The notes under the pieces: generated by a model | Databases searched by the model: none | What the model was told of the DNA's origin: nothing | What the model saw: the letters and a program-made list of their open reading frames with translations, nothing else | Assembly: GCA_016840085.1 (NCBI GenBank) | Contig: JAEOTA010000019.1 | Span: forward strand, 1-64,000 | Direction: 5' to 3' | Source of the DNA: Promethearchaeota archaeon | Lineage (GTDB): Archaea; Asgardarchaeota; Lokiarchaeia; Sigyniarchaeales; SOKP01 | Length of the DNA stretch: 64,000 nt | Shown here: piece after piece, positions 8,835 through 46,313 of the stretch | How the letters are laid out: every line of letters begins with the position of its first letter | Numbering within the stretch: position 1 is the stretch's first letter | Made by a program: the position numbers and the translations under genes

Positions 8835-9029
8835 TTATTTCTTTCTTCTATCAATAACTAATTCTCCCCCAACGCCAACATTTTCTGACAGGTTCTCTTT
8901 TATTAATATTGTATAAACCTCTCTCGGTAATTTATATGCCTTTTCAAGAGCATTTGTAATTTCCTTAACTAATTGTCTCTTTACTTCTATATCATCAATT
9001 GGAGGGCCATCTATGGTTACATTTGGGAT
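8835..9029 (-). CDS. dmpI: 4-oxalocrotonate tautomerase family (DmpI-like); probable start ATC 9029-9027 giving an N-terminal Pro
   Basis: P-NVTIDGP...KRQLVKEIT...IKENLSENVGVGGEL; the track start GTG lies inside the AGGTGA SD motif. Confidence 0.75.
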   Translation of the reverse strand: MPNVTIDGPPIDDIEVKRQLVKEITNALEKAYKLPREVYTILIKENLSENVGVGGELVIDRRKK

Positions 9030-9194
9030 TTTATTATTCACCTTTCTTGTTAATTTTCAATTTAATATTTATCCATAATATAGTATTATGACAATCAAAT
9101 TAAAAAAAGTTAATGTGACCATTATATCAATTATCTAAAGAAAACAGTTCTTATAGATCAATATGAGTATCAAGCAATTATCAATATACTGAAA

Positions 9195-9347
9195 TTATAA
9201 TCTCATTACTTTAAAAACCCATTTTAATTTACATTGACGTGAACAGAAAAGTCGTTTTTTTGGTTGTTGACATATATTGATATGGTGATGTTCCTTATTC
9301 CACTTATTACTAACGATGCTCTTACCACAGAATTCGCAATTAGGCAT
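9195..9347 (-). CDS. 50-aa TRASH/MYM-type zinc-finger microprotein, copy 1
   Basis: Manual translation MPNCEFCGKSIVSNKWNKEHHHINICQQPKKRLFCSRQCKLKWVFKVMRL; paralog at 15545-15697. Confidence 0.8.
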   Translation of the reverse strand: MPNCEFCGKSIVSNKWNKEHHHINICQQPKKRLFCSRQCKLKWVFKVMRL

Positions 9348-9528
9348 TATTATTTGTCTTCTTTTTTAGTCTCTTTAAATTTCTCTATGTTGCTCAATTA
9401 TTACTAATATGTTAATGTTAATGAGCTTTTATATATAATATAAAAAAATTATGTGAGTTCTACTTTTTCTTTTCTTTATAATTCCTACGGATTGAATATA
9501 TTTTTCTTTTTTTAAAAGTATTTTATTT

Positions 9529-9900
9529 TTAATCCCCTATTGGCTTTACAGTACTTTTTTCCATTATTAAGATTGATGTACGAGTAGGAGCTCTTGTACG
9601 ATGCATTACACCTTTTGGTACAGTAAAACCTTGATTGGGTCTCAATTCAATTAATTTATCTTCCAGATCAATTAAAAGTAATCCTTCAATAACGAAGAAG
9701 AATTCATCTTCTTTTTCATGTTTATGCCAGTGAAATTCTCCTTCAATAACTCCTAACCTAACGACAGAATCATTTACTTGGCAAAGAGATAAATTTTGCC
9801 ATTTTTTAGTGCAATTTTCTATTACTCTTGGAATATCAATAACTTCCAATGGTTTATATTTTATTTCAGGATCAATTGAGTATTTATTATAGTCATTCAT
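9529..9900 (-). CDS. Cupin domain protein
   Basis: GEFHWHKHEKEDEFF, VPKGVMHRT. Confidence 0.9.
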   Translation of the reverse strand: MNDYNKYSIDPEIKYKPLEVIDIPRVIENCTKKWQNLSLCQVNDSVVRLGVIEGEFHWHKHEKEDEFFFVIEGLLLIDLEDKLIELRPNQGFTVPKGVMHRTRAPTRTSILIMEKSTVKPIGD

Positions 9901-9911
9901 TTTTTTTTAAC

Positions 9912-10429
9912 CTATATGTCTGTAACTTTCGATATATCTAATGAAAACATGACCCTACGCCGATACGGCTCAGATTTACTTAGTTCTCGACAAGCTCTTG
10001 CTGCTAGTGCCTTTATTTTTGTTGTTCGCTTTTTATAATCATCGTCCGAAAGCTCAATAAATTTTAAACAATCATAAAAACAGAAATTCACGCATGCTGG
10101 TGACCCATCACATAAATCACACTTATTAATCATTTGTTCTTTGATATATTCAATTGTTCCAAATGGACAAGCAACAATGCATTGATTGCATCCAATACAC
10201 TTATCTTTATTCACAGCAATTAATGGGTCTCCTTGAGGCGTTTTAGTCTTATAAATAGCCCCAACTGAGCATGCTCTCATACACATTGGATCTTCGCATT
10301 GTAAACAAACAACAGGTCTCGACCATCCTTCCAGTCCATTGGAAACTACCCGAATACGCGAATGTGAAAGAATAAACTCTCCCTCTCTGGTACTAGAGCA
10401 CCCTTAACTACTAAGACTTTTTTGCTCAT
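9912..10429 (-). pseudogene. AOR-associated 4Fe-4S dicluster protein, frameshifted near the 5' end and missing its first CxxCxxC
   Basis: ATG 10429 gives MSKKVLVVK; a different frame gives CSSTREGEF...SRIRV...CLQCEDPMCMRAC...CIGCNQCIVACP...KCDLC. Confidence 0.75.
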
Positions 10430-10443
10430 AGCCTTTTCTTATC

Positions 10444-43571: not shown

Positions 43572-43892
43572 CTAATAATTTTTATATGCTTTTATCCTTG
43601 TCTGAATAGCATCAATTATATATCCTGGAAACTCATTAAATGGTATATCCTTAAATAGCTCAAAACAGGAACAACAAAATCCCAATTTAAAAACTTCAAC
43701 ATTTTTATAAAAAAGATGATTCCTCCTTACGGGCTTATCAAGCTTTCTATCACAAATTATACAATAATCAAAAAATCTGGTGATCTTTTCTCTCTCAATT
43801 CGTTTCGCTATTTTTGGATTATTTAATATGTACGATTTGATTATTTTCCGCAGACGTTCTGAATCGGATATATAACCTTGAAAGATTCTCAT
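43572..43892 (-). CDS. Small Zn-finger hypothetical protein
   Basis: CIIC...CCSC; paralog relic at 36106-36312. Confidence 0.75.
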   Translation of the reverse strand: MRIFQGYISDSERLRKIIKSYILNNPKIAKRIEREKITRFFDYCIICDRKLDKPVRRNHLFYKNVEVFKLGFCCSCFELFKDIPFNEFPGYIIDAIQTRIKAYKNY

Positions 43893-44051
43893 AGATTTAA
43901 TTTTACTAAAAAGTTCTTTTCTTACCTTTGAAATTGTTGATAATATAATATATAAATGTTTTTCAATTTTACTCTGGTATGACTTAAAGCTGAATAATAA
44001 TATTTAAATATAATTTCTTAGATTATGAAGTAAAATATTTTTAGTTACTTT

Positions 44052-44388
44052 TTTCTTACATATCAAATAAGGTCTCAACGCGGTCTATTATATTTTGGAC
44101 TGCTTGCTTACTTCTCTTTTGCTCGATAGATTACAAGCATTCCATTTAGCGGTCATGTTATAATATTATCTTTTTATTTAGCTCATCAAGGGATAAGTAA
44201 TAAGTTAAAATATCCATTAAGATTTCTAATTGGAATACTAGTTCTTATTATAACAGCTGTTTACAAATTGCTTCTTTGGAACGATCCTATTACTTTTTTT
44301 AGGAGCTATAGTAGGAATTGCTATATGGATTCCAGCATTCTTATATCGGATAAAAAGTAATAAGCAATTAGATGCTCAAGAGTTTTAA
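44052..44388 (+). pseudogene. Decayed membrane-protein gene (in-frame TAG, frameshift in a T-run)
   Basis: LLYFGLLAYFSFAR*ITSIPFSGH...WNDPITF, then shifted LGAIVGIAIWIPAFLYRIK. Confidence 0.55.
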
Positions 44389-44455
44389 AAATGATTTATA
44401 GAAGGATTAGACACTTTAAGATTTTATAAAATTATTAAATTTAACTTGAACTAAC

Positions 44456-45622
44456 TCAGCTTACTTCGACGTGAGATTCGATTTTATTAATTGATTCATC
44501 AATGCGGCTAGGATCATCAACCTTAATCGAGATTGCTTCATTAGGGCAGGTACTTTCGCATCTTCCACAGCCTAAACATCGTTCCTGGTTTATTTTCGCT
44601 ATTTCATCAATTATTTCCATTCCCTTAAAGACACATACTTCAAGACACTCTCCACATCCAACACAAAGGTCTTCATCAACATAAACACTAACACCCTCCA
44701 TTCTGTGAAATAAATTAAGACTAATTGAGCCATAAGTCAGAATCTTTCCATCAATACAACAACAGGGACAACAGAAACACATGGATAAAAAATGTCCAGT
44801 ATCTTCAACGCCATATCCATCAGCCTCATCCATAGCTCTTCCGAGTAATGGAATTAAACCATCATCAATGGCAAGTTTCACCCGTTCTAAGGCTTCCTCC
44901 TTTGTCGCAAAATGGCCTTTATCTTCAGTAATCAGTATGTTTAAAGTATCATCACCCATATACATACACCCCAACGACTTATCATGATCTTGACAATCAT
45001 TTATTGTCCTACAAGGACAGTTATTTAACATAACAATATTACTCGCCTTATCAATAAAGTGTTTAAAGACTTTAACCGGCATAATTTGACTTTCAAATGT
45101 TCCCAAGGATTGATTGATAGGTACGAAAACGCCATAGTCATCATCCCCTAATGCCATTTTAACAAGATTTCGAAACATTGGTAATTTTGATAGTATAAAT
45201 GGATGATAGCCCTTCTCTTCGTTGAAATAAGCAGTTAGAAAAGGTTTCGTTATTCTTGATCTTTTTTTACCTTTTTCTGTATCAACAATTTTCCAACCTA
45301 CAGTCTTATATATTTTAAATCCACCTTTATGACCTGGAGCAAACGTGAACTTAAAGGCTCCACCCTTTAAGAACTCAATCGCTAGCTTTTTATCTCTAAT
45401 TTCCAAAGTAATATCAGGCTCATCTAATTTTTCTCCAAATTTGTAAGAGATGTTGTCTTTCTCAAAAATTTGATACCCAAAAATTTCACAAATCTTCCAT
45501 TGAACTTTTAATAATCCAAAATCTTTCACGTCTACTTGATAAAATTTATCTTTCTGAGGTATATTCTCAAGATCTTTCATCATTTTGATGAATAAAGATT
45601 CGATTTCCCCTTTATTTTCCAT
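44456..45622 (-). CDS. 4Fe-4S binding protein with N-terminal extension (possibly SCP2-like)
   Basis: CPCR, CFCCPCCC, CVGCGECLEVC, CLGCGRCESTCP. Confidence 0.85.
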   Translation of the reverse strand: MENKGEIESLFIKMMKDLENIPQKDKFYQVDVKDFGLLKVQWKICEIFGYQIFEKDNISYKFGEKLDEPDITLEIRDKKLAIEFLKGGAFKFTFAPGHKGGFKIYKTVGWKIVDTEKGKKRSRITKPFLTAYFNEEKGYHPFILSKLPMFRNLVKMALGDDDYGVFVPINQSLGTFESQIMPVKVFKHFIDKASNIVMLNNCPCRTINDCQDHDKSLGCMYMGDDTLNILITEDKGHFATKEEALERVKLAIDDGLIPLLGRAMDEADGYGVEDTGHFLSMCFCCPCCCIDGKILTYGSISLNLFHRMEGVSVYVDEDLCVGCGECLEVCVFKGMEIIDEIAKINQERCLGCGRCESTCPNEAISIKVDDPSRIDESINKIESHVEVS

Positions 45623-45894
45623 AATTTCACGTGGAATATTCTTAAATTAAATTTATTAATATAATGTTTTGAATTATTAAAATTTGAGCTCTTCCAGTAT
45701 AGCTTTATTTTTTAATTCAAGATTAAGTTAAGAAACTAATTTAAATTTATTTTTTTTTTCATTTATACCCTAATTTCTTAATTACCATATACATAAAAAT
45801 AGTTAAATTAAAAATTATTGAAAACAAATTGTAGTACGAAATTAAAAAAATAAAAAAAGATAGTATATTTCAAGTTTATAGTTAATATACGGCT

Positions 45895-46116
45895 TCATTT
45901 AACTCCAAGTATTCCTTTACAATTAGTACATATACTGATCGTAATATATGTATCCCCTGGTTTTACAGAACGACGCCCCATGTCTAAAAGCCCTGGAGTC
46001 TTAGTAGATATATTATAAATACCTTTCGTATATGCCACTGCTCTTTTACTATAATCCATGCTTATTTTTGTTTGACAGATGGGACAAACTATATATTCGG
46101 GATATTCTACTGTAAT
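45895..46116 (-). CDS. 73-aa Zn-finger protein, apparent ATT start; absent from ORF track
   Basis: (I/M)TVEYPEYIVCPICQTK...ISICTNCKGILGVK; GAGTGAT 5 nt upstream, in-frame TGA immediately upstream. Confidence 0.7.
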   Translation of the reverse strand: MTVEYPEYIVCPICQTKISMDYSKRAVAYTKGIYNISTKTPGLLDMGRRSVKPGDTYITISICTNCKGILGVK

Positions 46117-46313
46117 TTTTAATCACTCTTTTTCTCTTCTTTCTTTTATAGAATAGATTTCACATTTTGTGAGATCTTCTCAATATTTACTATTTTGCTA
46201 GTAAATTAAAAAAAGATATAGATTTTTCTAATAAAAAAATTTTTTGACTATTCGTAATTATGCCTATTTTTTGTAAATTATTTCATGCTCCAGCCACAAA
46301 TAAATCTATTTAT

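Follow-up and report, generated by a model that had tools for sequence, protein, structure and literature searches.

The stretch of DNA analysed here, hereafter the window, comprises 64,000 nucleotides and forms positions 1-64000 of contig C5 of a metagenome-assembled genome (MAG) of an uncultured Promethearchaeota archaeon, a Loki-type member of the Asgard archaea (G000; 4.68 Mb, 89 contigs, 29.5% GC; other G numbers denote genomes of relatives). On its minus strand lie four genes, encoding a tautomerase, a caspase-domain protein, a thioredoxin-like protein and a small zinc-finger protein, in each of which a Shine-Dalgarno (SD)-like motif precedes an ATT or ATC codon at the head of the reading frame (Table 1). 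A sequence-only reading of the window had pointed to these sites, and its coordinates, motifs and spacers all proved correct, as did the canonical site with which it compared them (GAGGTGA-5nt-ATG at 6743). It had further proposed that the lineage often initiates translation at AUH codons (AUU, AUC or AUA; in DNA ATT, ATC or ATA). Comparison with relatives and a genome-wide scan bear this proposal out: the genus very probably initiates routinely at AUU, AUC and AUA behind an SD motif by means of its ordinary initiator tRNA, and several of the window genes, together with at least about 1.5% of genes overall, among them those of a ribosomal protein and of the initiation factor aIF1, most likely begin at ATT, ATC or ATA.

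Table 1. Genes and motifs under discussion (positions in the window, except where a contig of the host genome is named).
Feature	Position	Strand	Start codons and remarks
4-oxalocrotonate tautomerase (DmpI-type) gene	8835-9029	-	candidate ATC 9029-9027, then CCA (Pro); GTG alternative 9041-9039
SD-like AGGTGA	9038-9043	-	8 nt before ATC
Membrane-anchored caspase-domain protein gene (Peptidase_C14, CUB, TSP3 repeats, zinc ribbon)	33477-35828	-	probable start ATT 35828 or ATT 35825 (35825-35823); TTG alternative 35807
SD-like GGGGAG	35831-35836	-	2 and 5 nt before the two ATT codons
Thioredoxin-fold (MTH895/Thioredoxin_3-like) gene	41183-41476	-	candidate ATT 41476-41474 or ATA 41479; stops TGA TAA 41485-41480
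SD-like AGTGAT	41482-41487	-	5 nt before ATT; kept in most orthologs
Small zinc-finger gene (2 x CxxC)	45894-46116	-	candidate ATT 46116-46114; in-frame TGA 46125-46123
SD-like GAGTGAT	46122-46128	-	5 nt before ATT; its TGA is the in-frame stop
Zinc-finger paralog	C5:68737-68952	-	
Zinc-finger paralog	C89:40623-40826	+	
Winged-helix regulator gene	54868-55575	-	candidates GTG 55575-55573 and ACG 55563-55561

No 16S rRNA gene was found in the host MAG, so that the anti-SD sequence could not be read directly, and the ribosome-binding motif was therefore inferred from the 5-mers over-represented ahead of the first ATG in long open reading frames (ORFs). GAGGT, GGAGG, GGTGA, AGTGA, AGGTG and GTGAT show 3.5- to 5.6-fold enrichment upstream of ATG starts (GGTGA-type motifs 4-fold, AGTGA 3.9-fold) and combine to GGAGGTGAT, a spacer of 4-9 nt separating the A of GGTGA from the ATG and one of 7-12 nt being usual for the GGAG part in ATG genes. 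Counted from the A of GGTGA, the spacers of the three non-caspase genes are 8, 6 and 6 nt, and ATG genes peak at 4-9 nt; the proposed likeness to canonical spacing holds for the tautomerase, thioredoxin-like and zinc-finger genes and fails for the caspase gene, in which the spacing is shorter than usual. Proteins of the window were scanned against Pfam and NCBIfam profiles, and an Rfam scan of the 64-kb window returned zero family matches.

In the stretch from the in-frame stop upstream to the conserved N-terminal region of the protein, a canonical start is absent from the thioredoxin-like and zinc-finger genes and present in the tautomerase, caspase and winged-helix genes. Both of the former have an in-frame stop 1-2 codons upstream and no ATG, GTG or TTG before the first CxxC, as the sequence-only reading had stated. 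In the thioredoxin-like ORF the earliest such codon, a GTG, lies 43 codons past the ATT, beyond the CxxC motif (CAKC, residues 18-21); the protein matches Pfam Thioredoxin_3 marginally (25.2 bits, cut-off 24.8) and falls below the cut-off of 62 for NCBIfam TIGR00412 (23.7 bits). Orthologs with 60-72% identity occur in 17 other species of the genus, and across these and the window's own copy (18 in total) the codon homologous to ATT 41476 is ATT in 11, ATA in five, ATG in one (L014) and ACG in one, with an additional ATG one codon upstream in a single ATT copy (L006). In most copies a stop precedes this codon by 1-3 codons and an AGTGAT-like motif precedes it by 5-6 nt. Codons 2-3 are kept as Ser-Lys through synonymous changes (TCT/TCC/TCA and AAG/AAA), which argues that they are translated; codon 7, an ATG in nine orthologs, is CTT, CTC or TTA in others, and so encodes an ordinary hydrophobic residue and is not a common start. 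The ratio of nonsynonymous to synonymous substitution rates (dN/dS) of these orthologs against the G000 copy is 0.17-0.41, and we regard the predicted AUH start of this gene as strongly supported.

The same grade applies to the AUH start predicted for the zinc-finger gene, whose earliest canonical codon, an ATG, lies 19 codons past the ATT and beyond the first CxxC. The protein matches no Pfam or NCBIfam family and belongs to a lineage-specific family of proteins of about 73 amino acids (aa) with two CxxC pairs. Three copies in G000 and five in four other genomes of the genus, with identities down to 29%, have ATT, ATA or ATC at the homologous start position behind GGTGAT, GAGTGAT or GAGGTAG (8/8 copies; ATG in 0/8), and codons 2-10 differ synonymously between paralogs (ACA/ACG, ATA/ATT, GTT/GTG, CCC/CCT). 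In a collection of 5.8 billion proteins the family is represented by two clusters only, both truncated, one of 54 aa that begins at the internal ATG, without the first CxxC, and one of 67 aa that begins at a GTG just before it. The expectation that gene callers shorten such proteins is thus realized in this family, which the public collection holds only in internally started forms.

In the remaining genes an in-frame canonical codon that the sequence-only reading had not mentioned lies near the flagged start, and the foremost alternative is that these codons are used instead (GTG 9041 in the tautomerase, TTG 35807 in the caspase gene, GTG 55575 in the winged-helix gene), the AUH codons being plain Ile codons or part of the 5' untranslated region. 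For the tautomerase, the scans place the catalytic Pro directly after the presumed initiator codon: Pfam Tautomerase covers residues 2-60 on profile positions 1-59, with position 1 at the Pro, and the NCBIfam DmpI equivalog (75.3 bits, cut-off 70) covers residues 2-60 on positions 2-59, with position 2 at the Pro, a full-length match that makes the protein a DmpI member. The ATC position is occupied by ATG-CCA in 12 homologues and by ATC, ATT, ATA and ATA in four genes (G000; G024, the closest at 92% identity; G021; and a paralog in G018). The dN/dS between the ATC copy of G000 and the ATT copy of G024 is 0.095. The GTG is retained in frame in G024, as the alternative would have it, but it sits within the SD motif, has no SD of its own and would put the catalytic Pro at position 6, and in the two ATA copies in-frame stops exclude it. 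We therefore take the ATC as the start, and judge it much the likelier of the two candidates. The sequence-only reading had held that Pro-1 fixes the start at this ATC; the exact alignment with ATG-Pro in the 12 homologues supports the placement, but the in-frame GTG inside the SD makes it probable and not certain. Beside these copies, the G001 ortholog (L041/L046, G001:C429:10637-10824) has ATG-CCA in one frame and continues in another, and is a frameshifted copy or an assembly error.

The Peptidase_C14 match of the caspase-domain protein covers only profile positions 3-86 of 233, and its N terminus is kept in one close ortholog only, that of G005, where the start region reads GAGGAGGG-AAG-ATC ATT AAA AGT AAA AGA TTT CTG ATA TTG. 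Common to both genomes are the SD and a following AT[TC] ATT AAA AGT AAA, with AGT as the Ser codon in each. The TTG of G000, six codons downstream of the ATT and within the membrane helix, aligns with CTG in G005, and the TTG of G005 aligns with TTT in G000; because each TTG faces a non-start codon in the other genome, there is no homologous canonical start. Moreover, distant homologues begin with Met, a basic stretch and a hydrophobic helix, a pattern that a start at ATT matches and that a start at TTG, which would remove the basic n-region, does not. We consider an AUH start of the caspase gene moderately supported by these alignments.

The ACG at 55563 of the winged-helix regulator gene had been offered as a weaker case behind AAGGTG, and its standing is mixed. 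A GTG inside the AAGGTG, four codons upstream of the ACG, is in frame in G000 and is kept in G024, G023 and G007; in three further orthologs (G015, G019, G012) there is no canonical start and the ACG, expected to be the least frequent Thr codon in a genome of this kind, is conserved with an SD 7-9 nt upstream. A paralog in the same genome (L225, G000:C78:12534-13226, plus strand) has no ATG, GTG or TTG before its helix-turn-helix domain, and carries ATC and CTG 3 and 6 nt behind AAGGTGG; it probably uses a non-canonical start. In the thioredoxin-like and zinc-finger genes intervening stops bar any recourse to canonical codons, and overall we hold this alternative to be unlikely.

Across the genome, stop-to-stop ORFs of at least 100 codons were scanned from the upstream stop to the first ATG, GTG or TTG, leaving out codons within six codons of that first canonical start and counting an SD at a spacer of 4-9 nt. 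An SD precedes 14.9% of ATG, 9.5% of TTG, 6.6% of GTG and 4.1% of CTG codons (6/147), and likewise 3.2% of ATT (73/2267), 3.2% of ATC (22/688) and 2.9% of ATA codons (52/1810), as against 1.63% of all other non-start codons (492/30260). Pooled, AUH codons have an SD in 147 of 4765 cases (3.1%; Fisher odds ratio (OR) 1.93, p 1e-10), an excess over expectation of about 70 genes. The spacer profile of in-frame AUH codons peaks at 4-7 nt, as does that of ATG, with no peak for AUH one or two bases out of frame or for AT-rich control codons, and many of the 147 matches show N-terminal motifs right after the AUH. A Pfam scan of 20 candidates, picked by eye, found 11 in which the domain begins at profile position 1-6 and 3-33 residues from the AUH, with the first canonical start 32-130 codons further on; these encode uL16, two short-chain dehydrogenases (SDRs), MobB, a cytidylyltransferase, GFO_IDH_MocA, a Ras-family GTPase, ThiF, SMC_N, DUF371 and a metallo-beta-lactamase.

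On a codon-usage scale running from non-coding to coding, the extensions of the candidates lie at about two thirds. The same log-odds score was also tried for estimating how many genes in total lack a canonical start, and was set aside, its discrimination being too weak for that purpose (in-gene mean 0.18, non-coding -0.10, standard deviation 0.2, 15 negative controls), and the approximately 260 ORFs (5%) with coding signal past the first canonical start that it yields serve only as a rough upper bracket. The share of genes started at AUH would accordingly be at least 1.5% and perhaps up to 5%, which gives a figure to the "often" of the original proposal. The enrichment recurs in a closed genome of the same genus (G006, 800 kb, OR 2.74, p 3e-6) and is absent from two genomes of another family of the order (G032, 800 kb, OR 1.44, p 0.27; G030, 800 kb, OR 1.04, p 0.87), whose ATG genes use an SD as frequently as those of G000, so that the statistic does not reflect a general artefact. 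Of the groups that were sampled, only this genus shows the habit.

Among the genes concerned are essential ones. The codon before the AHKRPW motif of ribosomal protein uL16 is, across 79 species-level relatives, ATG in 54, ATC in 14, ATA in one, TTG in eight and GTG in two. Copies with AUH have a stop 1-5 codons upstream (two in most, the TGA of GGTGAT) and their next canonical codon 39-59 codons downstream, or 109 in the G000 copy; an AGGTG core lies upstream of 15/15 AUH copies vs 9/54 ATG copies, the AUH copies being kin and not 15 independent events. As regards the records themselves, an Asgard-type uL16 76% identical to that of G000 stands under the title 'Candidatus Nanopelagicaceae bacterium' (L352, DATKTW010000153.1), and near-identical relatives, including several JBHL* records, are titled Thor-, Hod-, Odin- or Hermodarchaeota; these titles look inconsistent or mis-binned.

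The gene of aIF1, the sole SUI1-domain gene of G000, has its start ATT two codons after a TAA, and both its zinc knuckle and its SUI1 domain precede the first canonical codon (codon 58). ATT stands at this position in all 22 genomes of the genus that carry the gene; a stop precedes it by 1-3 codons, and 21-86 codons separate it from the first canonical start. In other families of the order (L249-L255) the codon is TTG (genera g2 and g9), GTG (g11) or ATA (g5, probably also g10), and ATG was found in none of the 29 genomes examined, so a weak start codon on this fidelity factor looks to be an order-wide feature. We also considered an AUH-started aIF1 as the cause of genome-wide AUH use and rejected the idea: the aIF1 of G030 starts with ATA, and that genome shows no enrichment, so that such a start is not sufficient.

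These comparisons bear on a second explanation, namely that the flagged genes are recent pseudogenes or start-loss alleles, in which AT-biased mutation turned ATG into ATA, ATT or ATC and expression was lost. One substitution suffices to turn ATG into ATA or ATT, a change that AT pressure favours at 29.5% GC, and one SD+AUH match of the window (ATT 10373) does lie in a broken gene. The description of the four genes as otherwise intact is nevertheless upheld by dN/dS values of 0.10-0.62 in all four families, including pairs with AUH in both copies, which indicate purifying and not relaxed selection and mean that the genes are not pseudogenes. Tallied over orthologs, the homologous codon is mostly AUH and not uniformly ATG, and AUH is kept between species whose proportion of differing synonymous sites (pS) is 0.29-0.63, that is, a third or more of those sites. 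Moreover, N-terminal codons vary synonymously while the protein is conserved, and the genes affected include essential single-copy ones (uL16 in 15 species, aIF1 in 22/22), so that loss of function is a very improbable account. Least credible of all is a sequencing or assembly error or a frame shift from the out-of-frame GTG in AGTGAT/GAGTGAT (homopolymer indel or programmed frameshift), because, although the GTG within the SD of the two stop-bounded genes lies one base out of frame and is followed by an A/T run, the arrangement recurs in independently assembled MAGs, whose agreement rules out a fault of reads or assembly, the motif of several orthologs contains no GTG (AGGGAT, AGTTAT, GAGGTAG), and the L014 ortholog of the thioredoxin-like gene has an ATG exactly at the ATT position.

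Several observations weigh against routine initiation at AUH and temper the counts given above. Roughly half of the 147 SD+AUH matches are expected by chance, the candidates scanned with Pfam were not a random sample, and the relatives are kin and not independent, so that ortholog counts overstate the number of events. A false match exists within the window itself (ATT 10373), for which reason single SD+AUH matches need ortholog support. In G000 the tautomerase, caspase and winged-helix genes each have a nearby in-frame canonical codon, and the SD spacing of the caspase gene is short (2 and 5 nt). Finally, aIF1 of Sulfolobus has been reported to discriminate against AUU (PMC4705826), which means that efficient use of AUH in this genus needs an explanation.

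Initiation at AUH, as we reconstruct it from sequence comparison, would take place on leadered mRNAs, where an SD of the GGAGGTGAT type would set the 30S subunit over an AUU, AUC or AUA lying 4-8 nt further on, where the usual initiator tRNA (anticodon CAU) would start despite the mismatch at the third position. A weak codon would in this way be paired with a strong, well-spaced SD, and start codons could drift among ATG, GTG, TTG and AUH at one position while the protein remains under purifying selection. An initiator-type tRNA-Met is present in G000 (A1:U72, anticodon CAU). ARAGORN recovered seven tRNAs without introns and 13 if introns were allowed, including a tRNA-Ile(UAU), and the tRNA genes of this genome seem to be heavily interrupted or poorly assembled. 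We infer that initiation really occurs at the AUH codons and that Met rather than Ile is inserted there, the latter because Pro-1 of the tautomerase must be exposed by methionine aminopeptidase; expression from AUH would be lower than from ATG.

Known systems offer partial parallels. The AUU start of infC is a textbook case, and pcnB of E. coli also starts at AUU. As in these two, an SD-led mRNA with an AUU start would be read by the normal initiator tRNA, and, as in infC, the gene of a fidelity factor itself carries the weak codon. In bacteria, the AUU start of infC, which encodes IF3, goes with autoregulation (PMC4705826). The genus studied here differs in that at least about 70 genes, including that of a ribosomal protein, are concerned, unlike the one or two genes per genome in bacteria. 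The factor in question is aIF1, a homologue of eIF1, and not IF3, and an AUH-started aIF1 also occurs in genus g5, which does without genome-wide AUH use. In animal mitochondria (NCBI tables 2 and 5) AUA, AUU and AUC are routine start codons, and the two systems are alike in that AUH is a regular start for a sizeable share of genes; mitochondria, however, rely on a single modified tRNA-Met and no SD, whereas here there is a separate initiator tRNA with anticodon CAU and a strong SD. Translation table 11 lists ATT, ATC and ATA among possible starts. In the searchable literature we found no systematic description of AUH starts in Asgard archaea, only a methods-section remark that AtubA of one Asgard MAG 'likely' has 'a rare ATT start codon' (PMC13394414), which concerns one gene, calls it rare and comes with no genome-wide or comparative analysis. 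Ribosome profiling of Haloferax volcanii placed about 30% of putative alternative initiation sites at near-cognate codons (PMC7261190); these are alternative or extra sites, set aside as possible false positives, and not the sole starts of conserved genes.

A more far-reaching and rather doubtful possibility is that start-codon stringency is lower in this genus than in its sister families, and that the AUH genes, uL16 and aIF1 among them, form a class whose translation tracks the abundance of aIF1, a global translational control of the eIF1/eIF5 'stringency' type that would be at work already in an Asgard archaeon; the cause might then lie in aIF1, aIF2, the initiator tRNA or 16S rRNA of the genus.

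The rest of the window adds a few features. The ATT at 10373 behind AGAGG was examined as a fifth AUH start of the window and discarded, since comparison with the G002 ortholog indicates that the ferredoxin-like 4Fe-4S gene in which it lies (9912-10429, minus strand) has been broken by an out-of-frame deletion: it begins at ATG 10429 with MSKKVLVVK and then shifts frame into GCSSTREGEFILSHSRIRVV, while the G002 ortholog has the full MNKRVLAIQSDNCNGCHLCELACSSTKEGEF, so that G000 has lost the first CxxCxxCxxxC motif. The PMSR gene (17896-18483) has a normal start at its ATG. Other ORFs with long heads, at 5337-6266, 2450-2896, 43572-44003, 37288-37593 and 37669-37944 on the minus strand and 6885-7973 on the plus strand, had no match in Pfam. 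At 55676-58342 on the plus strand lies a gene for a predicted secreted or membrane protein of 888 aa, with three short tandem units (EPMIKEKGIP..LRGIRD) and, after them, three repeats of about 150 aa each (LLLEQWANGTILGE...).

Routine initiation at AUH would mean that gene finders limited to ATG, GTG and TTG shorten or miss a measurable part of the proteome of this genus, including a ribosomal protein, small GTPases, aIF1 and lineage-specific small proteins, and that such truncation would distort the protein databases on which research into the origin of eukaryotes draws. Eukaryotes are noted for strict selection of AUG through eIF1, and a close archaeal relative with routine use of AUH would stand in contrast to them. 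An eIF1 homologue that itself appears to start with AUU, in a genus in which AUH starts would be routine, may therefore offer a natural system for learning how the stringency of initiation is set and how it evolved.

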